From the UHGV virus genome UHGV-1356165: a DNA stretch of 44,902 nt; one strand, written 5' to 3'. This stretch comes from a virus. Under the pieces are notes generated by a model, which made no database searches, was not told where the DNA came from, and was given only the letters and a program-made list of their open reading frames with translations. This document shows, one piece after another, positions 7,293-42,196 of the stretch (its first letter is position 1; every line of letters begins with the position of its first letter). Made by a program: the position numbers and the translations under genes.

Positions 7293-7321
7293 ATTATATA
7301 AAAATATAAAATTAATTGCAA
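7293..7321 (-). promoter_or_regulatory. Sigma70 promoter cassette copy a: TTGCAA-17-TATAAT
   Basis: Minus strand -35 TTGCAA (7316..7321), 17-nt spacer, -10 TATAAT (7293..7298). GGAGGTGA RBS and ATG follow about 20 nt downstream. Confidence 0.6.
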
Positions 7322-7359
7322 CTATTGACCATCATTCCAAACCATTAAATACCGTGTGC

Positions 7360-7599
7360 CTAATCCATCATAAGTAGGGTCGCTTGTTCCATCAATGTCA
7401 TAAAAGAAAAACCAAAGCCGATATAGGTGCGATCAAGGCAAACGCGGTTGTACAAGACTTTACCGTCACTACTTTCTAATGATGCATATAGCCTGTCTTT
7501 GCGCGTGTTTAAAGTGATTTGCCAAGTCACACCGTTTAATGTTGTGCTGAAAAATTGGTTAGGTACAGCAGCCACAGGAATATCAAATTGAGCCATCAT
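7360..7599 (-). CDS. Tail-module hypothetical protein
   Basis: 79 aa. Overlap-coupled to 7596..8234. An alternative C-terminal reading frame opens at a T5 run, so the C-terminus is uncertain. Confidence 0.35.
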   Translation of the reverse strand: MMAQFDIPVAAVPNQFFSTTLNGVTWQITLNTRKDRLYASLESSDGKVLYNRVCLDRTYIGFGFSFMTLMEQATLLMMD

Positions 7600-8234
7600 G
7601 AACCTCCAAAAATATCAGACAAAATACTTGTGCGTTGAGTAGACGTTTTTGCCCCACCATCAACAGTGTTTGAGTCGCTCGGCTGTTTAACTTCTTCTAA
7701 ATCATAATCAACCTTAGCTTCAAGCACTTCTTCTAAATCAAGGTTGACAGTAAGCATTGTTGCCCCGTTTTGAGCAGTTCGAGTTTTATTAATGCCAATT
7801 AGTTGATATCTCATAAAAACATATTCAGGGGTGATGGTGTAAAAAGAGATAGTTGATTTAAGTAGCGCTTCGAGCTGTGTAAAGAAAACCTGTCTTTCTT
7901 CAATACTGTTGCCACCTTTTGCAAGCGTCACCGTAGCCATACTTGGCGTGTTTACCTTGTTGTATGAAGCAAATGATCCTTGTTCGACTGGATATTTTGA
8001 GATACTCGCAGCAGCATCATAGCTCATACTGATAAATGAATCGGCTAAAACAATCGGAATACCAAACTCATTAAAGATACCCCACTTCTTACCAAACACG
8101 GCGTTAATAAGCGCAGCACCGCCCAGCGACAAGCCAACATTAGCCAGCGTTGTTGGTGCTACAAAATTTGGGACGCTCGGCATTCCATTCATAATAATCT
8201 CACTTAAAAGAAGGTCGTTGAGACAAGAAGCCAT
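7596..8234 (-). CDS. Tail protein, possibly Mu gp43-like DNA circulation protein N-terminal region
   Basis: 212 aa. Immediately after the tape measure gene in Mu-like order. Confidence 0.35.
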   Translation of the reverse strand: MASCLNDLLLSEIIMNGMPSVPNFVAPTTLANVGLSLGGAALINAVFGKKWGIFNEFGIPIVLADSFISMSYDAAASISKYPVEQGSFASYNKVNTPSMATVTLAKGGNSIEERQVFFTQLEALLKSTISFYTITPEYVFMRYQLIGINKTRTAQNGATMLTVNLDLEEVLEAKVDYDLEEVKQPSDSNTVDGGAKTSTQRTSILSDIFGGS

Positions 8235-10164
8235 TAGTTAAGCCGAGCGCCATATCTTGACCTGTACCCAACATAGTAGGAGAGGTTGTTTGGATTTCCA
8301 CCCTATCTACATTAACTTCAACATTGTTCGCTTGATTAGCGATAGGTTGATTAGCTCTAACTCCTGCCAAGTTAATCTTATCACTTTGTCTCATGGCTTG
8401 CTGTGCGTTCTGAATCTGCATATTTTGATTTGAGTTGCCACCCAATGAAACATTAAAGGGCTGTGGCATTTTATTTCTATCAGCAGAAGGAGTTCCGTGA
8501 ACATGAATGGATTTCCCAGAACCAAAAACTTGACCAGATGCTTTTGCCTGTCTTTCAACTTCAGCAACCCACTTTTTAGTAGATTCGCTTGCTTCCCCTA
8601 GAAAATTAGGATTTGCATAAGACACATTTTGACCAACAATAGAAGGTAAGCCAGCAGCTCTTTTTGCTAAATAATTTTTAACAAAGTCTTGCATTTTTGG
8701 TGAAACCCTACTCATTGGTACTTTTTCAACACTACCGTATGCACTTTTTCTCGGGCTATTGATATCAGAAAACGCCCATCTTTGATTGGCAACACCTCTT
8801 ACACCAGTTCCGTATTTTCCAGATGCAGCTCTATTTAATATAGTGTCAATAACACCAGCAGCCTGCTTCTCAAAATCACCATTATTTAAATTTGGTGCAA
8901 CTTCTGTTGAGGCAACTTTCATAATGTCAACAATATCTTGTTCGGTTAAGTTTAGAGTTCTGCCAAACATTTTTCCAGTGCCACCACCAGTATTGCCATT
9001 TGAACTTTGTGGATTAACTAAATTCTTAGCCGCATTCTCCAGCGTGCCATTTTCTTGACCTGTTAAATCGTCAACCACGCCTGCAACATTAGAGCCAAAT
9101 TGTTTGATCATACCCCACGCTTGTTTGCCTGCACCACTAAAATCACCAGACATAAGTTTTTCAACAATCTCAGCATATCCACGCAATGTTGGAATGGTAT
9201 TATTGATCATGTCTTGATATAGATTCTTGAATGCGTTTTTTAGGTTGTCAGTAGACAGTGTGGCGTTATCAATATACTTGCTAAACGCACCCCAATCGAA
9301 TAACGATTTACCACCCTCAGCCCATGTTTTATAGTCATCATAAAGCAAACCAAATGCAGCACCTAAAGCGCCTACAGTGGCAATAAATGGAATAAACGGC
9401 GCAATGAATGCTAATGCCGCAATAGTGGCTTTAATTAAAATTGGGGTTAATACCGCACCAATAACAAATGACAGTGCTTTAAATACCGCCTGAACCTCTC
9501 TTTGGTGCTGTTGCAGGTATTCAAACATGCCGAGCGCAACTTCACTTAATTTAACAAACAAGGGAATAACTGCATTCCCAAGCATTGTTTTGAGTGATTC
9601 CCATTGCGAGCCAATTAGTGCGCGATTCTTTGCTAAGTCTCGACTTGCTTGTAGTTCAGCTTCACTAGACTTATACATCGTGTTTTGGTAGGCAATCATC
9701 TTCTCCATTTCTTGCCGACCTTGCACTAAAGTATTAAATGTTTCCTCATCAATACCCATTTTAGATGCAATAGAGAATGCCTGCTCACGATCCATTTTAC
9801 TAAATGAATCTGCTAAATCGAGCATTACATCATCAGTCTTGCGAAGATGCCCTTGTGTATCAACCATCGACACACCTAAGGCATTCATGAACGGCAACAG
9901 GGTAGTATCACCCATCACAACAAAATCATTCATCCCCATGTTTAGGGATTTCATTGATTCAGTCATGCCTTGAGCAGAACCACCCATTGCAGACGCAGCA
10001 CCTTGCCAATTCTTGATTGTCTGTGACGACATGCCAAGATTGCGTTCAAGAAAGTAAAGCTCATCGTTTAGTTGCTGAACTTGATCAACAAGCTTAATTA
10101 AACCAGTAGCAGCAGCAGCCACAGAAAACCATCGGGCAAGCGTCTTGGTGACATTACCAACCAC
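8200..10164 (-). CDS. Tail tape measure protein, main body
   Basis: 654 aa, Ala/Gly/Gln-rich, helical. Lies between chaperone and baseplate genes. The apparent N-terminus is in the neighbouring frame (10098..10292). Confidence 0.7.
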   Translation of the reverse strand: MVGNVTKTLARWFSVAAAATGLIKLVDQVQQLNDELYFLERNLGMSSQTIKNWQGAASAMGGSAQGMTESMKSLNMGMNDFVVMGDTTLLPFMNALGVSMVDTQGHLRKTDDVMLDLADSFSKMDREQAFSIASKMGIDEETFNTLVQGRQEMEKMIAYQNTMYKSSEAELQASRDLAKNRALIGSQWESLKTMLGNAVIPLFVKLSEVALGMFEYLQQHQREVQAVFKALSFVIGAVLTPILIKATIAALAFIAPFIPFIATVGALGAAFGLLYDDYKTWAEGGKSLFDWGAFSKYIDNATLSTDNLKNAFKNLYQDMINNTIPTLRGYAEIVEKLMSGDFSGAGKQAWGMIKQFGSNVAGVVDDLTGQENGTLENAAKNLVNPQSSNGNTGGGTGKMFGRTLNLTEQDIVDIMKVASTEVAPNLNNGDFEKQAAGVIDTILNRAASGKYGTGVRGVANQRWAFSDINSPRKSAYGSVEKVPMSRVSPKMQDFVKNYLAKRAAGLPSIVGQNVSYANPNFLGEASESTKKWVAEVERQAKASGQVFGSGKSIHVHGTPSADRNKMPQPFNVSLGGNSNQNMQIQNAQQAMRQSDKINLAGVRANQPIANQANNVEVNVDRVEIQTTSPTMLGTGQDMALGLTNGFLSQRPSFK

Positions 10165-10292
10165 TTTGTCCGTTTCACTAACCGATTCAGTAAGTTTTTT
10201 ATTTTACCAACGGCTTTATCGGCTTCACGATTATATTGTGAGCCGTCTAACCCAAGTTTTACAATTATCGACTCAACAATATTTTCAGCCAT
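10098..10292 (-). CDS. Probable authentic N-terminal segment of the tape measure gene in an adjacent frame
   Basis: ATG at 10292 overlaps the chaperone stop (AATGGCTGA). The frame ends at 10098 after an A6 tract. The TMP frame opens at 10203. The frames join at A_AAA_AAC (10194..10202). Confidence 0.45.
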   Translation of the reverse strand: MAENIVESIIVKLGLDGSQYNREADKAVGKIKNLLNRLVKRTKWLVMSPRRLPDGFLWLLLLLV

Positions 10293-13407: not shown

Positions 13408-13886
13408 GGCGCAAATACTCCCTGATTAAAAGGCTGTGTGCCTTGACCTGAGAAGCCAAAATATCGGGTATCACTTTTAGATATTTTACCTGTGTTTTGA
13501 ATCAGGATTTTTACCCAATCATTGTATGATTCTACAATCTTTTTCACATACCATTCTGTCGGATCGTCTTCGCCATAAGGTTTAATCACAAGAAATGTTG
13601 TGCCTAATTGCAAACCACGTCTAATAGCGGGAATCATGCCATCCGCATAAGCAAGCATAAACTCGCCTTGCTGGTTAGCAAATCCAAGATGCGCCAAGTC
13701 CTCAACGTCCATTGATTGCGTTTGAATAACTTTGGGTTGAGTTAAATAGGATGGTATCTGCGTTCCATCGTCTGACACGGTATAACCCGTACTAACACGT
13801 AGCAATGCTTCAATGTTTTCATTGACCGCTACTGTCATTGTATTGGCAAGCGCCCTGACTCTTAATGACATAAAAAAAAGCCCCAT
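13404..13886 (-). CDS. Tail or neck protein. Likely true start at the second Met (13871).
   Basis: 160 aa. The start region consists of a GGGCTTTTTTTT-ATG element with no SD. Confidence 0.35.
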   Translation of the reverse strand: MGLFFMSLRVRALANTMTVAVNENIEALLRVSTGYTVSDDGTQIPSYLTQPKVIQTQSMDVEDLAHLGFANQQGEFMLAYADGMIPAIRRGLQLGTTFLVIKPYGEDDPTEWYVKKIVESYNDWVKILIQNTGKISKSDTRYFGFSGQGTQPFNQGVFAP

Positions 13887-13938
13887 GTTGTATGAGACTT
13901 ATTTTAGCATTTTATTTAAAAACCAATAAAATAAAAAA

Positions 13939-14172
13939 TTATTTTATCAATTCAATTTCATGCTCTTCTACAGCCCAGCACTTTCCATCCTCACCAAGAC
14001 CATTTGCTTTATGCAGTTCATCCGATTCTTCAACATTAAACTGAACGTAAGGAGCAGTATCAATATCCAAAACAACACCTGTAACTCCGTTCTTTAAAAT
14101 GCTTGGATTTCCATTTGATGCAACCAATACAACCTTATCACCAATTTTAAATTTATTCATAATAACCTCCAA
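13939..14172 (-). CDS. Accessory gene: 77-aa standalone copy of a small domain also found at the N-terminus of 39442..40206
   Basis: Own promoter (14186..14214) and GGAGGT RBS. About 60% identity to residues 3-75 of the 254-aa membrane protein. Confidence 0.5.
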   Translation of the reverse strand: MEVIMNKFKIGDKVVLVASNGNPSILKNGVTGVVLDIDTAPYVQFNVEESDELHKANGLGEDGKCWAVEEHEIELIK

Positions 14173-14993: not shown

Positions 14994-15136
14994 TTTTCAA
15001 TCCTCATTGATACCTAAAAAATTAGTGTGGCAGTCATGTAGGTTGCATGATGTTCGGGTGCTACCCTAGCCACAAAACAATTATATCATTCATCACCAAC
15101 ACATAAACGTGAATAAAATTCACCTTATTTAAATTT

Positions 15137-15250
15137 GATGAATAATTTTAAGTATGCAAATTTTGCATAGATGAATGAATTAACAATAAACCAAACAAAG
15201 ATGAATTATTTTCACTTAACGACTTTTGATCAAATGCTATAATTCATCTA
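15137..15250. repeat. Iteron-like array: AGATGAAT(T/G)A(A/T)T three times direct (15137, 15169, 15199) and once inverted (15240..15250)
   Basis: Read directly from the sequence. Spacing about 30-40 bp. Confidence 0.5.
15154..15168. promoter_or_regulatory. 15-bp perfect palindrome ATGCAAA-T-TTTGCAT. Two back-to-back copies of the TTGCAT -35-like hexamer. Candidate operator.
   Basis: Direct reading. Sits between the GATGAAT repeats. Confidence 0.45.
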
Positions 15251-15612
15251 TTGCTTACAACCAGTGTGAAACTAAGCAAATCGGTTATGTGGTCGGAACA
15301 ACTATAACGGCAGCGCATAGCTTAAATAATCCTGTACTGTGAGGGTCAAGCAAACAGGAATCTGTTGGAATGGTCAGAAATGGCGTAGTGAGCAGAGCTT
15401 GGGGCAAGTTAAATTGTCGTATTCACTAACTAAAGCAAATTTAACAAAGGCTTTAGACTTTAATCGAAGGGTCGGCTCCAGTAGCATACTTTGATAAAGT
15501 TAATGTTCAAGATAGTTTTTTATAGACTGTCTTAGGATGAATATTAACTTTTTCTCTCAGAATCTCACCAATAGCATATATACATACTACTTAATTAAAT
15601 AGAGTTAGGAAA

Positions 15613-15905: not shown

Positions 15906-15929
15906 TAAAAAACCCTCACTAGGAGGGTT
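15906..15929 (-). terminator. Terminator of the minus-strand accessory operon
   Basis: AACCCTC-actag-GAGGGTT with U7 on the minus strand. Confidence 0.6.
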
Positions 15930-16119
15930 AATCTGAACTAATCACTTCGTTATAACACATGGCGTGAAAGAAAAGTAAAAGCACTGTAATGACGCCATTT
16001 AATATCCAAAAAAAGTCTGGTTTTTGAACCAAATTAAACAATGTATACCCAAAGTTTATAAGATTAGCGCTTATCAAGAAGCCAAGCGCCAAACCAAATT
16101 TAAAGTTAATCTTCTCCAT
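15928..16119 (-). CDS. Small membrane protein (63 aa, two predicted TM helices)
   Basis: Hydrophobic segments (LALGFLISANLINFGYTLF and ILNGVITVLLLFF). Coupled to the upstream gene. Confidence 0.5.
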   Translation of the reverse strand: MEKINFKFGLALGFLISANLINFGYTLFNLVQKPDFFWILNGVITVLLLFFHAMCYNEVISSD

Positions 16120-16120
16120 T

Positions 16121-16708
16121 TTATAAACTCCATTTTATGACAATGAAAAGTACTGCAATCATAAAAACAAGCACCACCATAGGCATATAATATAAAACAT
16201 GATCCAATATTTTTGGAGGAAATTCTATAATTTCAACTTTCGTTTTCATTTTTTGTGAAACTTCTTCCTTTAAGTCTTTTTTAGAAATTTTAGCTTCATA
16301 ACCCATAAACAATTTACTCCAAGAAGTTTCTGATCCTATTGTATATTTTTTATTTAAAAAATTTAAAATCATAACTTCTAATTCTCCAAAGTTTATTTTG
16401 TTTTGAGCACACCAGTTAATATAATCAACACCATTTACGTAAAAAGTGGTTGAGTACTCAAGAAGCTTAACAATTGCATCACCTTTAAAATCTGTCACTT
16501 CGCTTATTGCAAAGTTGTAAGCTTTATATAGATTTGTATATTCATTACCTGTCACAAACTCCTTTCTAATAAAAAAATCCATAGGCTCTTTTATATCTTC
16601 AAAAAGCTTTTCTGTGCATTGCTTAATAAGCGCTTGTTCGTCATTGTAAGCTTTCTCAATCTCTAATAGTTCTGTTTCGTAATCTCTAACTTTCATACCA
16701 ACCTCCAT
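16121..16708 (-). CDS. Membrane-anchored protein: soluble N-terminal domain of about 165 aa plus one C-terminal TM helix. Likely start at the second ATG (16696).
   Basis: C-terminal YYMPMVVLVFMIAVLFIVIKWSL. GGAGGT-N4-ATG upstream. Very AT-rich. Own promoter. Confidence 0.5.
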   Translation of the reverse strand: MEVGMKVRDYETELLEIEKAYNDEQALIKQCTEKLFEDIKEPMDFFIRKEFVTGNEYTNLYKAYNFAISEVTDFKGDAIVKLLEYSTTFYVNGVDYINWCAQNKINFGELEVMILNFLNKKYTIGSETSWSKLFMGYEAKISKKDLKEEVSQKMKTKVEIIEFPPKILDHVLYYMPMVVLVFMIAVLFIVIKWSL

Positions 16709-16885: not shown

Positions 16886-17322
16886 TCACATTCTCCAAAA
16901 TCTTAATTTGTTTCTGTTAACAGGCATAGGCGCTTCCGCACCAATCCAAAGGGCAGTGCGCCACGGCGAAGTCTTAGCATAGAATTCAGCACCGTATGGC
17001 GTAGCTTTAAGCCATTGCTCCATAGCCCCCGACCCCATAGGATAATCAGTGCTAATTGACACACTACCTTCTGTAGCTGATGAAATGCGTCCTACAATCC
17101 CTGTGTTTCCGCTAGTGATCCTGTTTTGCAATTCAGCTTTATGAGCCACTAAAAGCCAATACCACAACTTGCGATTTTTCAAGCTAATGCAAGACGTTTC
17201 GCTATTATCAAGCAAGCCTTCAATAGATTCAAAAAGTAGGTTAACTGCTCGTTTGAATAGCTATTGAATTGCGGAAACGCAAGCTTAAACGCATCAGGAT
17301 CAAAAACAAAAACATTGGACAT
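16886..17322 (-). pseudogene. DUF4054-like head-tail joining gene split by a -1 frame break (or a homopolymer indel)
   Basis: ATG at 17322 gives MSNVFVFDPDAFKLAFPQFNSYSNEQLTYF... and stops at 17173. The remainder (..LLVAHKAELQNR..) continues in the next frame from about 17262 to 16886. A5 run at 17231..17235. Confidence 0.45.
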
Positions 17323-19361: not shown

Positions 19362-19856
19362 TTATTTCGCTGTAATTTTGATGATAGAGTTCGCTGCGCC
19401 AACAGTAGCAACAGAAAACGGCGTTTCAGTGTAGCCTGAAATTGTAGCACCAGCAGCACCAGTTTGAATTGTGCCATTCGTGTTTGAAGCAAATACTTTT
19501 TGGCCAACAGTTGCGGCAGTGGTTGTCACAGCATAAAAATCACCACGATCATGCAGAGTAACTTCAACACCTGACGGAATTAAATTGCCGTATGATGTTT
19601 GCCATTGGGTAATCACTGCAATGTTTGAGTTGCGGCTTACAAAACCAAGCGCGTAATTGGTTGTGTCAGCAGGCTTAGCGTTTGTGGTAGTGCCGTCAAC
19701 AAGTGACGCCCAAGCAAATGCAGCAATTGTCACGCCAGCAGTTCCAGCGACAAACTGAAATGCGCCTGCGATGACAGAATGGTATGGGCCAATTGAAGCG
19801 AAAGCACCAGCCACGCCAATTGGGTTATATAAATTCACATTAGTTTGAAAAGCCAT
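19362..19856 (-). CDS. Head protein (possible decoration or DUF2190-like)
   Basis: 164 aa, Ala/Gly/Thr-rich. Lies between scaffold and capsid. Confidence 0.4.
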   Translation of the reverse strand: MAFQTNVNLYNPIGVAGAFASIGPYHSVIAGAFQFVAGTAGVTIAAFAWASLVDGTTTNAKPADTTNYALGFVSRNSNIAVITQWQTSYGNLIPSGVEVTLHDRGDFYAVTTTAATVGQKVFASNTNGTIQTGAAGATISGYTETPFSVATVGAANSIIKITAK

Positions 19857-20377
19857 TATTTTAACCCCTTGAGTGCTTTAACAGTGGTTTCAGACAACTT
19901 GCCCGATTTTGGTTTTGAATCCATTGCAACAGCAGGCGATTTGTGCGACTTAACAAGAGCGGCTAGACCAGCAGTATTAATGCCTGTGGTATCAACACCT
20001 TTTTGTTTAAGCGCATAAGCATAAACTTCGTAATCAGAACTAAAACCATCAAGTGCAATTGCGCCTACTAATGGCTCAACTTCACGACCAGCTTTAAAGA
20101 TATTCATGATAGAGCCGCGAACCTCTGCTGCATCCATAGCATGCTTCTTATCTTCATCACGATCTTTTTCTTCACGCTTTTCACGTGCTCTAAGACGCAT
20201 GGCTTCTGATTCGTTGTCTCTGTCAGCCTGAGTTTGCTTGTCTTCATCTTTGGCTTTCTTATCGTCTTCCTCAGAATCTTCTACAATGTCCTCATCTTCG
20301 GCTTTTTTGTCTTCATCCTCATCCTCTGCTTTCTTATCATCGTCAGCATCGAGAGCCAAAGAACTATGCACCGCCAA
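19856..20377 (-). CDS. Scaffold-like protein with an acidic tandem-repeat N-terminus
   Basis: The DKKAEDEDED repeat is also a DNA-level tandem repeat (about 20240..20350). ATGA overlap with the next gene. Confidence 0.4.
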   Translation of the reverse strand: MAVHSSLALDADDDKKAEDEDEDKKAEDEDIVEDSEEDDKKAKDEDKQTQADRDNESEAMRLRAREKREEKDRDEDKKHAMDAAEVRGSIMNIFKAGREVEPLVGAIALDGFSSDYEVYAYALKQKGVDTTGINTAGLAALVKSHKSPAVAMDSKPKSGKLSETTVKALKGLK

Positions 20378-20411
20378 AACAGCTTTTTTACATCTTCCAA
20401 AGAATCCATGC

Positions 20412-21197
20412 CTAACTGTTTTTGCAGCTTTGCAAGGCTTCCGTTTTAAGTTTGATTGTCATCAATTGACCCTCTATTGAATCTGCGATAATTGCGTCAC
20501 TGCCAATTCTACCACGTTCTACGATAGCAACGTGATTACCATGTATTTCTCGCATAATACCATCATAAGGAATGCCATTCCAAGTGCCTGCTGTCATATC
20601 AGGCGTATAAGCATAACCCGCTGATAATTCACCTAATGCGCGGCTTTCAATATAGTTAATACCTTCCTGATCAAATACGCGCAAAGATGACCACACTCGC
20701 CCTTCATCATCCATTGTGATTTCAGTTCCAATAGAACCAATAGTTGACTCTTTTTCAGGCTGTGAAGCATCTACGGGGATATGGCGTTTAAGAAGTTGCA
20801 AGCCTTTAAATGTAGGTAATGCTTTGCGTAATTCTTCTGGATCACGCAGCAGCATGTATTCCTTGTTTGGATCAAGACCTAATTCTTTCCAGTTCGGAAT
20901 AGATGAACCTGAATAGGGATTAACGGCAGCTTTAGTGATGATTGTCTTGTCAACAAGCAAATGATTGTTTCTATCATAGCTTCGAGCTGACCTATCCATT
21001 GCATGTTCAGGCTCTTTCTTTTCTTCATCAAGCCATTGATTAAACAATTCTTCAAGCTTGTCAAAATCGGTATCAGTCGCCATGCCTGCTTCTTTATATG
21101 CAATAGCAATCGCTTGATCTTTCGGCCTACCCGAATCAATTAACTCTTTAATGTTTGCGTGTATTGTCTCTTGGGACTTACCCTCAATTAATGGCAC
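20412..21197 (-). CDS. Prohead protease / DUF2213-like head maturation protein
   Basis: 261 aa. Upstream of scaffold and capsid. Confidence 0.4.
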   Translation of the reverse strand: MPLIEGKSQETIHANIKELIDSGRPKDQAIAIAYKEAGMATDTDFDKLEELFNQWLDEEKKEPEHAMDRSARSYDRNNHLLVDKTIITKAAVNPYSGSSIPNWKELGLDPNKEYMLLRDPEELRKALPTFKGLQLLKRHIPVDASQPEKESTIGSIGTEITMDDEGRVWSSLRVFDQEGINYIESRALGELSAGYAYTPDMTAGTWNGIPYDGIMREIHGNHVAIVERGRIGSDAIIADSIEGQLMTIKLKTEALQSCKNS

Positions 21198-21230: not shown

Positions 21231-21256
21231 ATAAAAAAGCCACTCGTTAAAGTGGC
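21231..21256 (-). terminator. Terminator closing the micro-gene operon
   Basis: GCCACT-cgttaa-AGTGGC with U6 on the minus strand. Confidence 0.6.
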
Positions 21257-21296: not shown

Positions 21297-21440
21297 TTAT
21301 CCATTTTTTAGTAAAACCTCCCACATAAACATTTTATTATCATCAAACCTCCAGTAGAGCGGATATTTATTCATATTTCCACACATCTCGTAATGCGTCG
21401 CGCCCTGCGGTGCATTCTTTCTGATTTCTTCAATGGTCAT
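21297..21440 (-). CDS. Unannotated 47-aa micro-protein, ATHY family copy 1 (MTIEEIRKNAPQGATHYEMC...)
   Basis: ATG at 21440. Paralogous to 29504..29671 and 38844..38990. Confidence 0.45.
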   Translation of the reverse strand: MTIEEIRKNAPQGATHYEMCGNMNKYPLYWRFDDNKMFMWEVLLKNG

Positions 21441-22038: not shown

Positions 22039-22333
22039 ACCTACCTCACAAAAAATATAATATAAAAAATAACTAGGGATGTGATCATGTAGCCCGCTCT
22101 CGTCAATCCGTCTTGAGCGAAGATTGCACTAATCATCCAAGCCACCCCCATCCCAAAGCAGATAAACGACAAGTCAGACATTACGTGTACTCAAATTTTT
22201 TACAAAGTATAGCAAATCTGTACACTTTTCGTTTGATTGTTACATTATTTCTCCTCACCATAAAGCATGGCTTCCAGTTGGGTTATTTGTTTTTTAGTTC
22301 TTCAAAACACCATTCATTAAAACTCCTCGCATC

Positions 22334-22578
22334 TCAATCCATATCGGTTAATTTATTAAAATTATTTAAGCACCACTGAAAAGAACTCCAGTTCACCTTA
22401 ACACCACTTTCAATGCATCTTGATTTTAAATCATTAAGATCGCTTGTTGATTTAATCTCAGTTGGTCTAAAACTCTTATACCCCCAATAGTATCCAACAT
22501 AGCCGTATTCGTTAGAAACTATAACTTTTTGTTTTTATTAAATATCCCAATAATTATACCATTTTCATAAGTAAGCAT
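22334..22578 (-). pseudogene. Small gene with a frame break at AAAAACAAAAAG (plus strand 22524..22535)
   Basis: MLTYENGIIIGIFNKNKK then, in the next frame, VIVSNEYGYVGYYWGYKSF...LTDMD. The plus-strand ORF 22113..22379 is its antisense artefact. Confidence 0.35.
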
Positions 22579-22604
22579 ACATTACCCCATTGCTTTGAGT
22601 TGGT

Positions 22605-23613: not shown

Positions 23614-23826
23614 TCACCACAATGCAATTATTTCACCATCAGCAATATCTTCAGAAAAATCAGTGTCAGTGCAATCAAACCACTGGCCACCATTAACACT
23701 CATGTACAAAGCAACACCATTTTCAACATAGTAAAAACATATCCAGCTAGAATCTACAAAGCTGTAATGAGTTGCGTCTTTTGGCGCTATATTTCTTGCT
23801 TTTGTTAAGTACATAAAAACCTCCAA
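23614..23826 (-). CDS. First gene of the micro-gene operon. Likely start at the second ATG.
   Basis: GGAGG-N5-ATG immediately downstream of promoter d. Confidence 0.4.
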   Translation of the reverse strand: MEVFMYLTKARNIAPKDATHYSFVDSSWICFYYVENGVALYMSVNGGQWFDCTDTDFSEDIADGEIIALW

Positions 23827-23865: not shown

Positions 23866-24395
23866 CATATAGATAAAATAAAACCCCGATACTTTACAGC
23901 ATGGGGTTCTAATCATTGTATCGGCACAGTCAAGAGTAACTTCTTATGTAAGGATAACACTGAAGCCTAAACGATTTTAATACTTGTATTTTACTCTTGA
24001 TTACTCCGAGAAATAATCGTGATGCATAGGACACATCTTTTAAATACAACACCATCGTTTTAATGGTAATTAAGCCAATCAACCGCATGATGCAACCCAT
24101 GCCCTGTACAGTAAATTGATCAACTTAGATGAAGTGAACAATTGCGCCAAACGCTAACAATGAAGCTATGCAATCAGGTAGTGTGTAGCCCTATGCACTC
24201 GCCTATTCACTTCTCTAAATTGCCTTCTTTCAGGCTGTCAATTGATCGGCAACGTGCGAATAGTTGCATACATGCACTTTGATGTATCTGACGCATGCTT
24301 AGCTCTTACTGTGTCGCCCACAGATTCGATCAATAATCAAATAATACCAAACCAAACTAAAAATACAAATCAGTTGTTTTGATATGTATTATTAA

Positions 24396-25049
24396 CTAAT
24401 TTAATAAAGTCTTAGCAATAGATGAAACCCTATCCTTGCAAAGCTTGTAAATCTCCTTGTAATCAAGTCCAGCATTTAATCCATCACTAATGGCAATTTT
24501 AACCATTGTTTCCGCTATCTTTATTTCATCCAATTTTCTGATAGGCAATATGTCGCGCTGACCTGCTTCAATGCCTAAAGCAGCATTTGTCATCTTTGTG
24601 ATGGTCATGTAATACATTTCTGCATTTGAGCTACCATTTTTTCTTGCATAGTCAACCAAGTCACGAATAGCATCAGTTTCCAAGTGTCGAACTTGTTTCC
24701 CTTCAATTCTAGCTATATCTCTCTTAGCTAATTGCGTTCTAGCGTCACGAAATGCTTTAACTAGCTTTAACTTTGCGGCAACAATATGATTATTGTTTCG
24801 CATTAAAGTTAGAAGAAAGTAGCATTGATCTTCATTCAATAAAGCAAATCTAACTTGAGAATTGTTGTATCCACATTCCGTTTGAAACGGAAGCTGACCA
24901 AGTGACTCAAATTGCGATTTATACTTATCTATGTTTTCAAGTATTGTGCGATGACGGTGATTTAATTCTGGAGCGAGTAGGCGAGAATCTACACGAAACT
25001 CAGATTTAATTAAGGCAATGGAAAAATCAGACATAATTTTAACTCTCAA
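24396..25049 (-). CDS. Rha-family phage regulatory protein (antirepressor-like)
   Basis: The N-terminal FRVDSRLLAPELNHRHRTILENI resembles the Phage_pRha domain. Confidence 0.5.
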   Translation of the reverse strand: MRVKIMSDFSIALIKSEFRVDSRLLAPELNHRHRTILENIDKYKSQFESLGQLPFQTECGYNNSQVRFALLNEDQCYFLLTLMRNNNHIVAAKLKLVKAFRDARTQLAKRDIARIEGKQVRHLETDAIRDLVDYARKNGSSNAEMYYMTITKMTNAALGIEAGQRDILPIRKLDEIKIAETMVKIAISDGLNAGLDYKEIYKLCKDRVSSIAKTLLN

Positions 25050-29492: not shown

Positions 29493-29516
29493 AAAAAACC
29501 GCGTTAAAGCGGTTTA
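29493..29516 (-). terminator. Terminator before the packaging operon
   Basis: AACCGC-gttaaa-GCGGTT with U6 on the minus strand. Confidence 0.55.
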
Positions 29517-29671
29517 AGTAATCCAATCCAAGATTTATCTATTGCCACATTGCCAGTTGGAGTTATTTCATACCAAAGAAATCCGATTTTTCTATGATAC
29601 GTAATATATTCATATTCAATGTAATGCGTCGCCCCACCAGGAGCTTTGTCTATAATTTCTTGCTTAGTCAT
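29504..29671 (-). CDS. Unannotated 55-aa micro-protein, ATHY family copy 2 (MTKQEIIDKAPGGATHYIEY...)
   Basis: ATG at 29671. Stop inside the terminator hairpin. Confidence 0.45.
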   Translation of the reverse strand: MTKQEIIDKAPGGATHYIEYEYITYHRKIGFLWYEITPTGNVAIDKSWIGLLKPL

Positions 29672-30101: not shown

Positions 30102-30467
30102 TCAAACCCCTTCCACATAAGCCTTAATTGCATCTTGATAATCCTCAAACAAAGCATCATCAAAATTACTAAAACCCTCAACCACTGGCGCTAAAAAGTC
30201 ATCCGTAGTTCCGCTAAATTCTTTTAACACCACATCATAAACTTTTCCATTAATTGCAACCTTAGCCACAACCTCGCCCTCTTTTGCATCAATGTCAAAG
30301 TCTTGCTCAATCTCATAATTGTTAAACTCATAAGAATTTAACGCTTCAAGCAATTCCTCAACCTTAGCGCAGTCATTACCACGCGCGATAAATCCATTCA
30401 TGTTACCCGCAATAGCCTCTTTCAAACCATCACAACCATACTTATCAATAAAATCAAATGCGTTCAT
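30102..30467 (-). CDS. Highly acidic 121-aa early protein (candidate DNA mimic or anti-restriction protein)
   Basis: About 27% Asp+Glu. First gene behind promoter e. Confidence 0.4.
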   Translation of the reverse strand: MNAFDFIDKYGCDGLKEAIAGNMNGFIARGNDCAKVEELLEALNSYEFNNYEIEQDFDIDAKEGEVVAKVAINGKVYDVVLKEFSGTTDDFLAPVVEGFSNFDDALFEDYQDAIKAYVEGV

Positions 30468-30492: not shown

Positions 30493-30521
30493 ATTATATA
30501 TATTTATAAAATTAAATGCAA
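30493..30521 (-). promoter_or_regulatory. Promoter cassette copy e: TTGCAT-17-TATAAT
   Basis: -35 at 30516..30521 and -10 at 30493..30498. A second TTGCAT lies at 30523..30528. Confidence 0.6.
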
Positions 30522-30561
30522 CATGCAAACGTAAAAAAGGATGCCTTAGCACCCTATTTAT

Positions 30562-31134: not shown

Positions 31135-31205
31135 ACAATTTACATTAATTAATTTTATTTTTGATAATGAATAGCATTCAAAAGAGACAAAATATAGATT
31201 TTTTT

Positions 31206-31406
31206 TTATAATTCAAATATTTTTTTATTACAATGTGAACAATTCTTTGTTCCACCATTTTTGAAATTTGGATTCTTATCTCCAGACAATCTATGTTGGT
31301 AATCTTTAGCCATACAAGATTTAGAGCAATATGTTTTTCTCTTTTGGTGAACAGTTGCCTCTTTTATTACATTACAGGAGTTGCATTTCCATATTCCAAA
31401 TTTCAC
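31206..31406 (-). pseudogene. N-terminal zinc-ribbon repeats of the same nuclease, separated from it by a single in-frame TAA (31206..31208). GTG start with no RBS.
   Basis: CxxC..KxYCSKSC repeats. The same reading frame continues through TAA into the 30562..31134 ORF. Confidence 0.4.
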
Positions 31407-31565
31407 AAATCTTTTTAATAAAAAATAATACTCTCAGTGTTTGTTTTCTTTAAAAACACAATTCAATCCTCATTGAAAACCTGATGTAAGTATGTGCCAC
31501 ACGTTCAGGTTAAACGCTATTCGGGGATCAGCCTAGGCACACATTAATTATATCACATTTCTATT

Positions 31566-32663: not shown

Positions 32664-32810
32664 TCACATCCACCATGAAGTCAAACCACCAACATTGCAG
32701 CAGTTACACATTACAAAACCATCCTTGTGCCAAAAAATCTGACTAAGTGATGAAACCGAACCACCTGCAAGCTTTGTGTTAACACTTTCAACCTGATTTA
32801 AAATTTTCAT
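32664..32810 (-). CDS. Unannotated 48-aa Cys-containing micro-protein, first gene behind promoter f. A 25-aa hydrophobic peptide ORF follows at 32590..32667.
   Basis: GGAGGAtaagtaATG. CNCCNVGG motif. Confidence 0.3.
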   Translation of the reverse strand: MKILNQVESVNTKLAGGSVSSLSQIFWHKDGFVMCNCCNVGGLTSWWM

Positions 32811-32834: not shown

Positions 32835-32863
32835 ATTGTATAATTTTATAAAATTAATTGCAA
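32835..32863 (-). promoter_or_regulatory. Promoter cassette copy f: TTGCAA-17-TACAAT
   Basis: -35 at 32858..32863 and -10 at 32835..32840. A shared CATAGCTTRGGAG leader is also present in copy g. Confidence 0.55.
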
Positions 32864-32876
32864 CGTTTTAATTCAT

Positions 32877-34201: not shown

Positions 34202-34441
34202 CTAAGCAAATCTTTTGCCGCGTACTTGAACAGCCTTGCGTTTATCCGCAACTCTCTTTTGTGATCCATTTTTCAGCACCTTGTATTTACGCCAAACAAT
34301 CACAGGAAATAAAACCACGCTTAAAACCAATGAAACAACACCCATTACAGACCAGAACAATTCTGACAACAATTTTGGCGCTAATTTAAAAAATCCAAAA
34401 ACTTCAACCAATGAATACCAAATTGCTTTAATAAGTGTCAT
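34202..34441 (-). CDS. Small membrane protein (two TM helices) with a basic C-terminal tail. First gene behind promoter g. Kil-like or exclusion candidate.
   Basis: AGGAGattgaaATG. TM helices plus a KRKAVQVRGKRFA tail. Confidence 0.45.
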   Translation of the reverse strand: MTLIKAIWYSLVEVFGFFKLAPKLLSELFWSVMGVVSLVLSVVLFPVIVWRKYKVLKNGSQKRVADKRKAVQVRGKRFA

Positions 34442-34464: not shown

Positions 34465-34493
34465 AAATATATAACAATATAAAATTTAATGCA
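34465..34493 (-). promoter_or_regulatory. Promoter cassette copy g: TTGCAT-17-TATATT
   Basis: -35 at 34488..34493 and -10 at 34465..34470. Confidence 0.55.
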
Positions 34494-34562
34494 ACAATTT
34501 ACCGCAATGGATGCATAAATATTTTTTACACACCCAATCGAATTGATATTCATGCAAGCACT

Positions 34563-35119: not shown

Positions 35120-36481
35120 TTAAAAATCTTGATTTTGCAAAAGCTCAGCATCGACAAATCGACTATACTCAAGCTCTGTACTTAAAATCACAGTTCCAGT
35201 TTCACCATCCCGAACCTTTGCTGCGATAATCTCGGCAAAACCCGCGCTTTGACTATTTTTATTGTAAACCTCGTCACGATAAATAAATAAAATGGTATTT
35301 GCGTCCTGCTCAACTTGGCCGGACTCTCTTAAATCCGACATTTGCGGTCTTTTATCTGCTCTATCTTCAACTTTTCGATTTAACTGAGATAAACAGAAAA
35401 CAGGACAGTCAAACTCTTTGGCTAGTGCCGATAGTGCTTTTGATATCGAACCAACCGCCAAGTGGTTTTGATCTGTTTTTAATGGCGGTGTAAGCAGTGT
35501 TAGGTAGTCAATAAACACCGCACCGACATATCCATACTGCGCCTTTAGCTTTCTGCAATTTTTCCGAATATGAGAAATTGTAGGGCTTGATTTGTCATCA
35601 ATCATAAGCTTTGATTTATCCAATCTTAAAATTGCATCATTAACCCCCTTCCACTTGTCATCAGGGACACGCGCGTTTCTTAATTGTGAAACTGTCACAT
35701 TTGAGTGACTAGAAACAAGTCTTCTCACAATAGCCTCACGTGGCATTTCTGCTGATTGAAATAAAACTGGGTGCTGCTGAATGAATGCAATATGATCCAT
35801 CATGTTTTGAATCAAAGTTGTTTTACCCATAGCTGGACGAGCAGCGATAATAATTAACTCGCCCCTCCCCATATACCCAATTTTTTCATCAAGATCAGTA
35901 AATCCAGTTTTAACGCCGTTAATTTTTTCAATGCCTTTTGCCCGATCCTCCATTCGCTTATTGATTTCGCCAAACATATCTAAAGCAATGTTATACGCAC
36001 TATCACAAGTTTTATCGTTTGATGTATTGTCCAATGTTGCTAAAACGCCGTCAGATTGCGATATAGCCGTGTCAGTATCGTATTGGGTAGTATCTATGGC
36101 AATGGTCTTAATTCTCTCACCTGCGTCAAACAGTGAGCGTCTACGAGCATAGTCAACTATCTTTTTGGCGTGATCAGCAAGTAAGTATGCAACTCCGATT
36201 GTAGAATTCAATTCAATCAGATATTTTTCATCAACCAGCTTACAGTCGTTTGCATCAAGCTTAATTGAATCTAAAACCATGAGAATGTCAAAACCCATAC
36301 CCAAGTCATAGATTTTTTTAATGTGCTTAAAAATTACTTTATGCTTTGTTGCGTAAAAGGCTTCGCTGTACAACTCATTCATCACATCATCAATGCCAGC
36401 ATTCAAAGACATCAAAGCCGATAAAACCGATTGCTCAATTTCAATTGAATATAGATTTTCGTTCACAAGTAAATTCCTCAA
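35120..36481 (-). CDS. dnaB: Replicative DNA helicase, DnaB family
   Basis: Walker A AARPAMGKTT. N-terminal DnaB-like domain (IEQSVLSALM). 453 aa. Confidence 0.8.
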   Translation of the reverse strand: MRNLLVNENLYSIEIEQSVLSALMSLNAGIDDVMNELYSEAFYATKHKVIFKHIKKIYDLGMGFDILMVLDSIKLDANDCKLVDEKYLIELNSTIGVAYLLADHAKKIVDYARRRSLFDAGERIKTIAIDTTQYDTDTAISQSDGVLATLDNTSNDKTCDSAYNIALDMFGEINKRMEDRAKGIEKINGVKTGFTDLDEKIGYMGRGELIIIAARPAMGKTTLIQNMMDHIAFIQQHPVLFQSAEMPREAIVRRLVSSHSNVTVSQLRNARVPDDKWKGVNDAILRLDKSKLMIDDKSSPTISHIRKNCRKLKAQYGYVGAVFIDYLTLLTPPLKTDQNHLAVGSISKALSALAKEFDCPVFCLSQLNRKVEDRADKRPQMSDLRESGQVEQDANTILFIYRDEVYNKNSQSAGFAEIIAAKVRDGETGTVILSTELEYSRFVDAELLQNQDF

Positions 36482-39430: not shown

Positions 39431-39441
39431 TTAAAAACTCC

Positions 39442-40206
39442 TTATGCTGCTTTGTAGATGAAGCAGCCGAGAATGAAAACAACCAGCATTACAAAGAATA
39501 CTAGCGCGAGAATTAATACGCCACTGTTAGATGGTTTTGGTTTTTCAGCTTCTTCCTTAATAGATTCTGATCTAATATCTAACGCAACTGCAAATCTAGC
39601 AGGGATAATTTCTCCATCGTATATAACATAATCACCCTCACTATATCTGCCAGTTAAACCGATAGAGCTATCATAATGAAGACATTCTTTTGCTTTTGGC
39701 TCAACCTCTGCAAGTGTTTGGTTTATTTCTCCAGCAATCACCGAAATATCAACAGGTGTAGATTTAATTTGAACAACTTCCTTAATCTGTTTACGCAAAG
39801 ACTTGTATCGAGCGTCAGACATATCACCGCGATTGGTAAACTGACTTTCGCGCGTTTCAACCGACAGAAAGCTGTCACCTTTGTTTAATGCTCGGCTTAA
39901 ATCAAGCTTGCTGATTCCAGTGCTTAAAATGTATTTGTGCAGCTTGTAGCGGTTTGATGTTTTGAATGATTGGCTTGTTTTTGGTTTTAACAATTCAATT
40001 TCACTATTCATAACAACCCAGCATTTACCCTTTTCACCAAGACCCCCACCACTATGCAATTGTTTTGACTCCCCAACATTGAATTGAACTTTTGTTGTAT
40101 TTTCACCATTAGAGATTACAACACCAGTCACCCCATTTTTTAAAACACTTGGATTGTTTCTAGAATCAACCAAAACAACCTCATCACCAACTTTATACTT
40201 ACTCAT
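39442..40206 (-). CDS. Membrane-anchored protein: N-terminal small domain paralogous to 13939..14172, a central domain, and one C-terminal TM helix
   Basis: C-terminal VLILALVFFVMLVVFILGCFIY. Own promoter h. Confidence 0.5.
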   Translation of the reverse strand: MSKYKVGDEVVLVDSRNNPSVLKNGVTGVVISNGENTTKVQFNVGESKQLHSGGGLGEKGKCWVVMNSEIELLKPKTSQSFKTSNRYKLHKYILSTGISKLDLSRALNKGDSFLSVETRESQFTNRGDMSDARYKSLRKQIKEVVQIKSTPVDISVIAGEINQTLAEVEPKAKECLHYDSSIGLTGRYSEGDYVIYDGEIIPARFAVALDIRSESIKEEAEKPKPSNSGVLILALVFFVMLVVFILGCFIYKAA

Positions 40207-40232
40207 AGTAAAACTCCTTAAATTGAATATTG

Positions 40233-40261
40233 AATATATATTAATATAAAAATTATTGCAA
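40233..40261 (-). promoter_or_regulatory. Promoter cassette copy h: TTGCAA-17-TATATT
   Basis: -35 at 40256..40261 and -10 at 40233..40238. Confidence 0.55.
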
Positions 40262-40282
40262 CAGTATTTGTTAAATTTGCAT

Positions 40283-40312
40283 AAAAAAAGACCCCTATGG
40301 AGGTTAGGGGTC
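40283..40312 (-). terminator. Terminator of the nucleotide-metabolism operon
   Basis: GACCCCTA-tggaggt-TAGGGGTC with U7 on the minus strand. Confidence 0.65.
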
Positions 40313-40349
40313 TGTGAAGAGGTTTTACTTGAGTTTGATCAGTATAATG

Positions 40350-41052: not shown

Positions 41053-41327
41053 TATTTAGACTCCAAATAAAAATGGCGTTCCGAATAAATTTCAGTAACT
41101 AATTTGCTTTCCGATCCATCGTTTTTCAAAACTCCCACATACGCAGACCAGCCATGTTTAGGTTTATAACCATACTTATATTCAACTTTGTAAACAATTG
41201 CCTTTTTCCCTTTATGAGTATAATTAAGTGTAATAACATCACCAATTTTAATAGGGCATACACTTTCTGCAAATTTTTGCTTAGCTTCTTCCAGTTGTTT
41301 CTCCAAACTTTCGATTAAATGTTCCAT
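41052..41327 (-). CDS. Hypothetical protein (91 aa) Confidence 0.4.
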   Translation of the reverse strand: MEHLIESLEKQLEEAKQKFAESVCPIKIGDVITLNYTHKGKKAIVYKVEYKYGYKPKHGWSAYVGVLKNDGSESKLVTEIYSERHFYLESK

Positions 41328-41704
41328 TGATTCAAAACCTCTATACCATGTTGTTTAAGATAGTTAACACCTAATTGCTTCTCGGGTTCGTCACGATGTT
41401 CTTTGTAATACACCGTCTTAATACCTTTTGAAACAATCAATTTTGAGCATTCTAAGCAGGGAATGTATGTCACCGCCATAATTCCGCCTTTGAAACTAAA
41501 ATCGTTATCGGCGAAGAATGCGACAATTTCTGCATGCAGTACATCAGGATTTGACTTATGCATGTTGCAATTACATTCTTCTGTTGTGCCGTGATTCATG
41601 CCAATACTGACAACTCGGTTCGCGAGCATAATAGCTGCACCAACCTTTTTCTTTTTGCATACGCTTAATGACTGAGCGTAATCTGCACTTTCAAAAACGT
41701 TCAA
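41315..41704 (-). CDS. dCMP deaminase (cytidine/deoxycytidylate deaminase zinc-binding fold)
   Basis: HAEIVAF and PCLECSK zinc-ligand motifs. Confidence 0.7.
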   Translation of the reverse strand: MNVFESADYAQSLSVCKKKKVGAAIMLANRVVSIGMNHGTTEECNCNMHKSNPDVLHAEIVAFFADNDFSFKGGIMAVTYIPCLECSKLIVSKGIKTVYYKEHRDEPEKQLGVNYLKQHGIEVLNQWNI

Positions 41705-41906
41705 AATCTAAAACCCATTCAAGAATATACAATTGACCAGATAGACTGTTAATCATTGGTTGAAATTTCATAGCATCTTCTGTTGTTTTTGCTTCATCTG
41801 CTTTAACGACAATCTCTCTAATTTCAGATTTAATTAACTCAGCTTTTTCTTTAATCTCTTCAACTGTTTTCATTACTTTGCTCCAATTGTTCAATTTTCT
41901 TTTCAA
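41691..41906 (-). CDS. Hypothetical protein (71 aa) Confidence 0.35.
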   Translation of the reverse strand: MKRKLNNWSKVMKTVEEIKEKAELIKSEIREIVVKADEAKTTEDAMKFQPMINSLSGQLYILEWVLDFERF

Positions 41907-42141
41907 TGCGGTGATGCGTAGAACGATGTAAAGATTTATCAGTTAGCTTCTTTCTTAGCTTTTTGATTTTATCCTTTACAAAGTCTTTTTTAGATAGTGA
42001 CTTTAATTCACTCTCCCCAATTTCGTTTAAGCATGTGCGAACAAATAGAGAAAAGTTATCCATCTGCATAGCCTTATCGTATGCGTCGGATTGATCTTTT
42101 TCGTCTAAGTTGAAGCATACAGCTTTAAGTTTGTTATTCAT
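41860..42141 (-). CDS. Possible ribbon-helix-helix regulator (93 aa), first gene of the minus-strand early operon
   Basis: The N-terminal KLKAVCFNLDEKDQSDAYDKAMQMDNFSLFVRTCL fits a beta-alpha-alpha RHH pattern. Sits at divergent promoters. Confidence 0.3.
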   Translation of the reverse strand: MNNKLKAVCFNLDEKDQSDAYDKAMQMDNFSLFVRTCLNEIGESELKSLSKKDFVKDKIKKLRKKLTDKSLHRSTHHRIEKKIEQLEQSNENS

Positions 42142-42153
42142 TTAAAACTCCTG

Positions 42154-42196
42154 TTGATTTGAATTTAATTTTATACTAATATAAATTTCAACGCAA
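42154..42196. promoter_or_regulatory. Divergent, face-to-face overlapping promoters. Plus strand: TTGATT-17-TAATAT (42154..42182). Minus strand: TTGCGT-17-TAAAAT (42168..42196).
   Basis: Direct reading. Both spacers are 17 nt. They drive the recombination module on plus and the nucleotide-metabolism operon on minus. Confidence 0.5.

Follow-up and report, generated by a model that had tools for sequence, protein, structure and literature searches.

The virus genome UHGV-1356165, a stretch of 44,902 nucleotides that was analyzed as a whole and is referred to below as the window, contains a promoter-like element joined to a ribosome-binding site (RBS). The element is present in eight strong copies and one weaker variant, located in front of early operons and of small genes lying among the structural ones. 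This 44.9-kb window is the whole or near-complete genome of a phiAC-1-like Acinetobacter myophage, and nearly all of its genes are on the minus strand. The nearest deposited phage is phiAC-1, which infects A. soli and shares about 90% identity with the window over 74% of the structural half. The next group comprises the Obolenskvirus phages (AP22, AB1, and others), with about 75% DNA identity to the window. Two Logan contigs of the run ERR975268 match parts of the window at 100% identity. Eleven further contigs of the lineage, recovered from public assemblies by exact-protein look-ups, showed 89-91% identity to the window across 55-85% of their length. The comparison of promoters and of the genes behind them (cargos) took in 12 related genomes, cited by label where necessary (L095 is ERR11042211 and L002 is AP22). 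The scan of approximately 55 window proteins and the annotation of phiAC-1 revealed no integrase or repressor family, and relatives are characterized in the literature as virulent or strictly lytic. The role in lysogenic conversion proposed for these genes in a first-pass annotation of the window is therefore unsupported.

Repeated promoter modules and their sequence

The eight strong copies, P1 to P8, are divided between the two halves of the genome. P1 to P4 are located among the structural genes. P1 (7293-7322, minus strand, core GTTGCAATTAATTTTATATTTTTATATAAT) occupies site 1 and is followed by a leader with GGAGGT and an ATG at 7266. P2 (14186-14215, minus strand) lies at site 2, directly past the stop codon of the Neck1 gene, with an ATG at 14160, and P3 (16721-16750, minus strand) lies at site 3, past a terminator at 16800-16775, with an ATG at 16696. 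Each of these three copies heads one or two small genes inside the head/tail/baseplate block. P4 (23837-23866, minus strand; ATG at 23814) follows a terminator at 23908-23882 at the pre-protease site and heads about ten small open reading frames (ORFs) between the packaging and head genes. P5 to P8 head the main early operons: P5 at 30493-30522 (past a terminator at 30555-30538, ATG at 30467), P6 at 32835-32864 (ATG at 32810), P7 at 34466-34495 (ATG at 34441), and P8 at 40233-40262 (past a terminator at 40313-40289, ATG at 40206), all on the minus strand. The P8 operon encodes a protein of 254 amino acids (aa), the single-stranded DNA-binding protein SSB, a methyltransferase, a replication initiator, and DnaB. 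The early region, headed by the variant at 42197 and by P8, P7, P6, and P5, encodes in addition dCMP deaminase, dUTPase, a superinfection-immunity homologue, and many ORFans. The reuse of one promoter plus RBS module, reported in the first-pass annotation, was thus recovered as eight strong matches and one weaker variant; its coordinates agreed for seven of the eight strong copies, and the copy placed at 34465-34493 actually lies at 34466-34494.

The variant at 42168-42196 exists as described, although it is weaker than the other copies: it reads TTGCGT-N17-TAAAAT on the minus strand (42197-42168; ATG at 42141) and scores 20.7 bits on the position weight matrix (PWM) of the eight strong copies. 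It turned out to be one half of a divergent, overlapping pair of weaker variants at 42158-42197. The plus-strand partner, missed previously, is TTGAAT-N17-TAAATT at 42158-42187 (22.1 bits); its ATG at 42217 opens the plus-strand operon at 42217-43538, which encodes an ERF-family annealase (PF04404, 2.8e-17) and a YqaJ exonuclease (PF09588, 7.5e-14). Within the pair each -10 element sits in the spacer of the other promoter, and the arrangement is kept in phiAC-1 and L096. The spacer TTTTATA of one variant is the reverse complement of the -10 element of the other. An antisense TTGAAT also occurs just downstream of the -10 element of P1 and P8, a possible relic of a bidirectional ancestor.

The pattern TTGCAW-N17-TAYAWT has eight matches in the window, all on the minus (coding) strand, versus 0.32 expected, and none of 100 shuffled sequences reached this number. 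The hexamers and the spacer of exactly 17 nt given in the first-pass annotation hold for all eight. The conserved unit is a 30-bp core, G-TTGCA-WTWAW-TTTTATA-N4-T-N-TAYAWT, which consists of the -35 element GTTGCAW, a spacer of 17 bp in which TTTTATA at -25 to -19 never varies, and a -10 element TATAAT, TATATT, or TACAAT. Strong similarity is limited to about 30-34 bp, from G at -36 to T at -7, and pairwise BLAST among the copies aligned only about 18-42 nt around the core, so that the identical element of roughly 60 bp postulated earlier shrinks to half that size. Beyond the core, the leaders fall into three loose subfamilies. The longer leader said to be shared by two copies was indeed found at 32835 and 34466 (CATAGCTTRGGAG).

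Could such a resemblance arise by chance in AT-rich intergenic DNA? The region is AT-rich, and generic promoter-like matches are no commoner in the window than in shuffled sequence. However, the number of matches to the specific pattern is far above expectation, and similarity outside the hexamers also exceeds that of random AT-rich DNA, since the mean pairwise identity of the spacers is 76%, whereas spacers shuffled internally reach 49% (z = 12.7). On the PWM, the eight copies obtain 36-42 bits and Markov shuffles at most 16; since the matrix was built from the same eight copies, their scores are not an independent test. Moreover, the copies are conserved across 12 genomes. These statistics refute a chance origin, whose probability we regard as negligible.

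The translation signals are equally regular. Each of the nine copies has a GGAGG or AGGAG that starts 12-15 nt past the -10 element; the distance from this Shine-Dalgarno (SD) sequence to the ATG is 4-7 nt, and that from the -10 element to the ATG is 22-26 nt, in agreement with the geometry described previously. Given the succession of a -10 element, a 12-15-nt leader, GGAGG, and ATG, the predicted 5' untranslated regions would be only about 15-19 nt long. The accompanying remark that several ORFs had been called from an ATG inside the RBS applies to a single case (16121-16708, MEVGM); two other ORFs were called from an upstream TTG.

All eight strong copies have the layout of a sigma-70 promoter, with a -35-like hexamer, a spacer within 17 +/- 1 bp, and a TATAAT-like -10 element, and they are located on the coding strand upstream of a gene at a plausible distance. 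Their -35 element matches TTGACA at only three to four of six positions. Promoters of A. baumannii are of the canonical RpoD type (PMC6182133). A long lineage-specific consensus, as is typical of promoters of phage RNA polymerases, might suggest that a sigma factor or RNA polymerase encoded by the phage, rather than host sigma-70, recognizes the motif. This seems very unlikely: besides the sigma-70-like layout, the approximately 55 proteins compared with PHROGs, Pfam, or PADLOC included no sigma factor, RNA polymerase, MotA/AsiA, Q-type antiterminator, or defence family, neither an RNA polymerase nor a sigma factor family is present in the RefSeq annotations of phiAC-1 and AP22, and a study of a related phage likewise concluded that the host RNA polymerase is used (PMC12859838). 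As judged from their sequence, position, and conservation, the copies are probably sites of transcription initiation, early in timing and strong.

We also considered a relation to the MotA box of T4, since TTGCAWTWA resembles the T4 box TTGCTTTA. This candidate was rejected: the element here is one base longer, its distance from the -10 element is one base greater, and no MotA/AsiA was found.

Turnover of genes behind the promoters

The three copies inside the head/tail/baseplate block head compact units in which a promoter, a cargo, and a terminator follow one another. The site-1 unit (6990-7266, minus strand, 22.5% GC) comprises an 83-aa ORFan at 7015-7266 and a terminator at 7008-6990. At site 2 (13878-14160, minus strand, 30.8% GC), a gene for a 73-aa protein at 13939-14160 is followed by a terminator at 13900-13878. 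The site-3 unit (15911-16696, minus strand, 29.3% GC) encodes proteins of 191 and 63 aa and ends with a terminator at 15929-15911; judged by hydropathy only, the first has a C-terminal hydrophobic stretch and the second is hydrophobic. The flanking late genes have a GC content of 38-41%. The products of these three units did not match any family of known function, and the same is true for nine of the ten tested genes lying directly behind the copies. The earlier statement that every copy heads an AT-rich unit, usually with its own terminator, is correct only for the copies at 7293, 14186, and 16721; the others head units of 1-6 kb with 34-38% GC.

Comparison with the related genomes revealed unrelated genes behind the same promoter at four hot spots, some of which are empty in particular genomes. 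At site 1, between a gene for a 91-aa virion protein and the baseplate hub gene, the same 30-mer stands before four mutually unrelated genes encoding proteins of 83, 84, 111, and 119 aa: the P1 30-mer is identical in phiAC-1, L098, and L100, each of which carries a different gene behind it. SRR30800408 lacks the cassette, and the flanking genes overlap at ATGA. In the four genomes with different cargos, mean pairwise identity at this site amounts to 90% over the 60 nt upstream, 93% over the core, and 69% over the leader; it falls to about 35% at both cargo ends and recovers to 89% over the 40 nt of the terminator arm and 92% beyond it.

At site 2, one promoter precedes three unrelated cargos. 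The P2 30-mer is identical in L097/L108 and L103, and the promoter is absent in three genomes; in phiAC-1 and ERR11042211 no P2 is present at this site, and L101 has a type-2 leader in its place. The 73-aa cargo of the window derives from the 5' part of an early gene, captured and fused to the promoter of site 2 at the SD/ATG; it shows 85% identity to the orthologue of ERR11042211 and 61% to the N-terminus of the window's own 39442-40206 product. Four unrelated cargos were found at site 3, where phiAC-1 and SRR30800408 are empty. The cassette of the window is a 993-bp insertion relative to 34 bp in phiAC-1, with junctions in similar terminator tails (GGGTTTATTTTATG versus GGGTTTTTTATTATG), and the P3 30-mer heads three other cargos, in L098/L104, L106, and L107. 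At the pre-protease site, terminator and promoter stay the same and are followed by at least five different first genes. The same cassette was thus found at accessory-gene boundaries of related phages, as the first-pass annotation had proposed to verify.

Homology breaks on the left inside the promoter-to-SD module and on the right at a conserved terminator. In L101 the left breakpoint falls within the promoter, in L098 immediately past the -10 element, and in L100 past the SD sequence. Behind P5, phiAC-1 contains an extra gene, gp22, flanked by repeats of the SD-ATG sequence. The sequence AATGCTAAAATAA (13899-13911, minus strand) precedes the terminator of the site-2 cassette and is also present in the site-1 right arms of L098, L100, and L101, which indicates that the right arms of different slots are related too.

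These data make it probable that the copies are host sigma-70 promoter plus RBS modules that serve at the same time as the conserved left borders of exchangeable gene slots. The host RNA polymerase of the sigma-70 type would read lineage-specific promoter and translation-start modules. Four copies would drive the main early operons, with replication and superinfection-immunity genes and ORFans, and three copies in the structural region would each drive a short, AT-rich unit of ORFans that ends with an intrinsic terminator. The promoter-to-SD module would form the left arm of a slot and the terminator its right arm; the arms would persist over evolution, and the gene between them could be inserted, deleted, or replaced. 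This may proceed by replacement between conserved flanks in mixed infections and, occasionally, by ectopic joining at the leader/SD or at the terminator tail. Annealase/exonuclease pairs of the ERF/YqaJ type act on short homologies, and the pair encoded by the phage would be a candidate engine for such recombination at the arms.

Several observations weigh against this interpretation. Each site has kept its own 30-mer variant, which speaks against frequent crossover between different copies; the best-resolved junctions are terminator tails, SD-ATG repeats, or 2-3-nt microhomologies rather than the promoter core; and many breakpoints between the window and phiAC-1 are not near any copy. In addition, the -35 element is invariably TTGCA, not the consensus TTGAC, and conservation of the spacer exceeds the needs of a plain sigma-70 promoter. 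In view of the site-specific 30-mers, most exchange looks like replacement between conserved flanks and not like free crossover between copies, and of the cassette exchange suggested in the first-pass annotation, the turnover of genes stands, whereas the crossover between copies does not. The non-consensus -35 element and the over-conserved spacer suggest that something beyond sigma-70 may read the motif.

Hairpins followed by T-runs close most of the units, and their location bears on another possible function of the late-region copies. A terminator hairpin lies at most about 60 nt upstream of four of the eight copies (16800, 23908, 30555, and 40313), and no hairpin was found between or over the promoter boxes of any copy. 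The terminator upstream of P3 (16775-16800, minus strand) is common to phiAC-1 and SRR30800408, whose site is empty. The one upstream of P4 (23882-23908, minus strand) is 89-95% conserved in Obolenskviruses, and the one closing the P4 unit (21239-21256, minus strand) is located just upstream of the head protease block. The P6 unit ends with the hairpin and T-run preceding P5 (30538-30555, minus strand), and the operon of the variant promoter with those preceding P8 (40289-40313, minus strand). The terminator closing the P5 unit (29496-29515, minus strand) is followed by an extended -10-like sequence, TGTTATTAT (29486-29478), before the small terminase gene.

The T-tail of the site-1 terminator runs into the ATG of the baseplate hub gene at 6982, and the start codons of the genes at 13886 and 6982 are located in the T-tails of the cassette terminators or immediately past them. 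Where cassettes are present, late transcripts must therefore cross these terminators, which would imply leaky termination or antitermination. Such an arrangement leaves no room for a separate promoter and would agree with the late-region copies being obligatory promoters of the downstream late blocks, each forming with its leader gene and an attenuating terminator a gate opened late by antitermination, like lambda PR'-tR' with Q. The hairpins before late blocks are also weaker (-7.9 to -9.9 kcal/mol) than three of the four preceding the copies (-13.4 to -14.9 kcal/mol). However, SRR30800408 is empty at sites 1 and 3, phiAC-1 has no cassette at sites 2 and 3, and the flanking late genes are simply joined there; late expression can therefore do without the copies. 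The proteins scanned included no Q-like protein, and other promoter-like motifs, of the form TGnTATWAT, are located before the terminase, lysis, Neck1, and Rha genes. We therefore consider such a gate improbable.

These extended -10-like motifs occur 13 times in the window versus 7.0 expected, a modest excess, and 11 of them are on the coding strand. They precede terminase, lysis, Neck1, Rha, and endonuclease-type genes and hint at a second class of promoters. When the sequences preceding the late blocks were searched by k-mers for a shared late-promoter motif, only terminator tails emerged.

Lineage specificity of the core and a possible phage factor

Between the window and phiAC-1, orthologous cores agree at 209 of 210 nt, including positions that vary among the copies, compared to about 94% identity in the adjoining 30-nt bins. 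In L095, the P6, P7, and P8 30-mers, also found in phiAC-1, are identical to those of the window at 30 of 30 positions, and the neighboring first early protein is only 40% identical to its counterpart. Fourteen distinct 30-mers were found lineage-wide, and G-36, TTGC, A-27, TTTTATA, T-14, T-12, A-11, A-9, and T-7 are invariant in all of them. These alignments show the signature of purifying selection on the core. Each site retains its own 30-mer variant across genomes.

The 30-nt degenerate pattern was scanned against IMG/VR, JGI metagenomes, and 185,579 representative bacterial and archaeal species genomes, and only phiAC-1 and six isolated matches in other contigs were retrieved. The three isolated matches that were inspected had no SD/ATG context downstream, and the three matches in species genomes belonged to non-Acinetobacter taxa. 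With an 18-nt pattern, the matches listed were mostly single ones. All eleven lineage contigs carry this promoter type, and none of them has the element characteristic of Obolenskviruses.

In AP22, no copy of the motif scores 10 bits or more on the PWM. Instead, its genome contains six exact copies of a 16-mer, ATTTACTATTGAGAAT, which reads as the -10 element TACTAT plus TGAGAAT; four are on the plus strand of L002 (24-39, 8953-8968, 37514-37529, and 43043-43058) and two on the minus strand (17148-17163 and 35830-35845). The same 16-mer was found in L092-L094, L089, and L090, and AB1-like contigs, with a capsid protein 94-95% identical to that of the window, contain only this element. The two groups are alike in genome architecture, in the TTGCAW-type -35 element, in the 17-bp spacer, and in the syntenic positions of their promoters, for example after Neck1 and after the terminator of the pre-protease ORFan cluster. 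At the latter site, the terminator is common to both groups and the promoter after it is of the lineage's own type. Unlike the motif of the window, which conserves the -35 element and the spacer, the 16-mer conserves the -10 element and the start (TACTAT-TGAGAAT), and neither lineage carries the element of the other. It is usually the -10 and start region of a promoter, and it also occurs inverted inside the spacers of TTGCAT-N17-TATAAT promoters; this independence of orientation gives it an operator-like appearance.

The non-consensus -35 element GTTGCA, the invariant spacer sequence TTTTATA, and the replacement of the motif by another 16-mer in the sister genus point to a phage factor. It is conceivable, although we rather doubt it, that GTTGCA and the spacer TTTTATA are also, or mainly, the site of such a lineage-specific factor, either a shut-off repressor or a modifier of RNA polymerase. 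Obolenskviruses have the 16-mer in the motif's place even directly after the same conserved terminator, and its inverted occurrence resembles an operator. AP22 encodes a helix-turn-helix regulator, gp68, for which no homologue was found in the window or phiAC-1. Even the variable positions of the core are unchanged between orthologues, and the motif is, apart from the isolated matches mentioned above, absent from the 185,579 species genomes and hence was not copied from a host promoter. On the other hand, comparison of the approximately 55 proteins with PHROGs or Pfam revealed only one regulator, a Rha-like protein, and strong early promoters of phages such as T4 and T5 carry an extended consensus for which the host holoenzyme alone is sufficient. 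By eye, the first early protein (93 aa) looked like a ribbon-helix-helix regulator, but this found no support: its AF2 model (pLDDT 73) was all-helical, Foldseek found no match at E <= 0.001, a profile search of PDB returned only coiled coils, and the protein has only three homologues.

An extension of the same idea, about as doubtful, would combine the 30-bp element, as a binding site of a lineage-specific phage factor, with the extended -10 class in a temporal switch between two classes of promoters. In such a switch, the -35-dependent promoters with the 30-bp core would be shut off or modified late in infection, and the -35-independent TGnTATWAT promoters would be favored. This would resemble the action of anti-sigma-region-4 proteins in T4 (AsiA) or in the Thermus phage P23-45.

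Related cassette systems and other features of the genome

The closest parallel to host-read promoter modules bordering exchangeable slots is provided by the promoter-early stem-loop (PeSL) cassettes of T4-type phages, described by Arbiol et al. (2010; PMC2839356) and Comeau et al. (2014; PMC4122927). In PeSLs, repeated strong sigma-70-like promoters, stem-loops, and SD/ATG signals are located before ORFans and at the borders of indels between relatives (PMC2839356, PMC4122927). Of the defining features (PMC2839356), the following are found here: a repeated sigma-70-like early promoter with an SD sequence and a start codon at its 3' end, a location upstream of ORFans in plastic regions (mosaic relative to phiAC-1), and insertions, deletions, or replacements between close relatives bordered by the motif, at four hot spots. 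Both systems are also associated with terminator stem-loops and have a few copies inside virion modules. In contrast to PeSLs, the copies described here belong to a 45-kb myophage that is not T4-type, and number 8-10 rather than about 50. Their stem-loop is a separate terminator, which lies either upstream of the promoter (four of eight copies) or where the cargo ends and is not interleaved with the promoter boxes, and each site keeps its own promoter variant. The PeSL type also includes excised mini-circles and demonstrated promoter and terminator activity; here, activity is predicted from sequence.

The short units also resemble the morons of lambdoid phages, reportedly described by Hendrix and colleagues. 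Like morons, the units at 7322-6990, 14215-13878, and 16750-15911 have, at the sequence level, their own promoter and terminator, are inserted between genes that are adjacent in relatives (at site 1 in SRR30800408, at site 3 in phiAC-1 and SRR30800408), and deviate in GC content, which is low here. In the classical definition, morons belong to temperate phages, and their expression takes place from the prophage. The window differs in this respect, as no integrase or repressor family is present in the proteins scanned or in the phiAC-1 annotation, and in that a single promoter family serves all its units and one and the same slot can hold different cargos.

The early promoters of T4 and T5 form a third parallel. 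They are numerous, near-identical, and read by the host RNA polymerase, with conservation beyond the hexamers and a reproducible deviation from the host consensus, and the copies in the window share this extended conservation and reproducible deviation. Their sequence is different, and no Alt-like ADP-ribosyltransferase or known polymerase modifier was found among the proteins scanned.

Our literature search found no description of promoters of phiAC-1-like phages and no transcriptome of the group, so that the window offers a solid, well-delimited example of a PeSL/moron-like organization previously undescribed in these phages. It carries the principle behind the PeSLs of 170-kb T4-type phages and the morons of temperate lambdoid phages over to a lineage of small virulent Acinetobacter myophages. 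Because regulatory arms frame the slots, newly acquired genes would be insulated and expressed at once. The four hot spots are precise locations for variable ORFans, which may include functions of host takeover, exclusion, or anti-defence. Relatives of these phages are in development for therapy against A. baumannii, and knowledge of entry sites and expression could be useful for safety screening and engineering, since the slots are natural insertion sites with a ready promoter, RBS, and terminator. The lineage-specific promoter types are in addition a testable handle on the timing of transcription in these phages.

Several other features of the window were recorded. Three small paralogues with an N-terminal APxGATHY (phrog_6698) are encoded on the minus strand at 23614-23814, 21297-21440, and 29504-29671, and two of them are the last gene before the terminators preceding the packaging and head blocks. 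The head maturation protease (19856-21197, minus strand) is a single ORF of 447-456 aa in relatives and is divided here into three reading frames within about 60 nt, near homopolymer runs; the identical contig of ERR975268 has the same split, which reflects either an assembly error or a genuine frameshift. The gene of the Rha-like regulator (24396-25034, minus strand) follows a head-morphogenesis gene and is preceded by TGGTATAAT at 25082-25074; tblastn found no match to it in phiAC-1 or AP22. Although the genome is tightly packed, stretches of 307-619 nt at 14994-15612, 22039-22604, 24089-24395, and 31135-31565 have no convincing ORF. The first of these lies between convergent genes, and its phiAC-1 counterpart is non-coding too. 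Searches of the window with Rfam (at gathering thresholds) and ARAGORN detected no known RNA family and no tRNA.

A second repeated 5' module, likewise without a match in Rfam, was found on the minus strand at 15088-14994 and 31555-31450 of the window and at about 19175-19293 in L095, 14460-14576 in L104, and 1305-1421 in L101. It consists of an extended -10-like sequence (TGATATAAT or TGGTATAAT), a predicted branched RNA of about 50 nt, an SD hairpin, and a start codon. The hairpin displays the SD sequence GAGG in its loop (TCAAT-GAGG-ATTGA), and 6 of the 21 predicted pairs show compensatory changes among the five sequences. The module heads different genes, including those for a T5orf172 protein and HNH-like ORFs.

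The terminators before the protease (21256-21185) and the small terminase (29515-29445), both on the minus strand, share a common loop, CTTTAACG, and downstream of each lies a conserved motif, TTGCATAAT or TG(T/G)TATTAT. In the lineage as a whole and in AP22, the stems of these terminators show compensatory changes, and the loop and the motif are kept.

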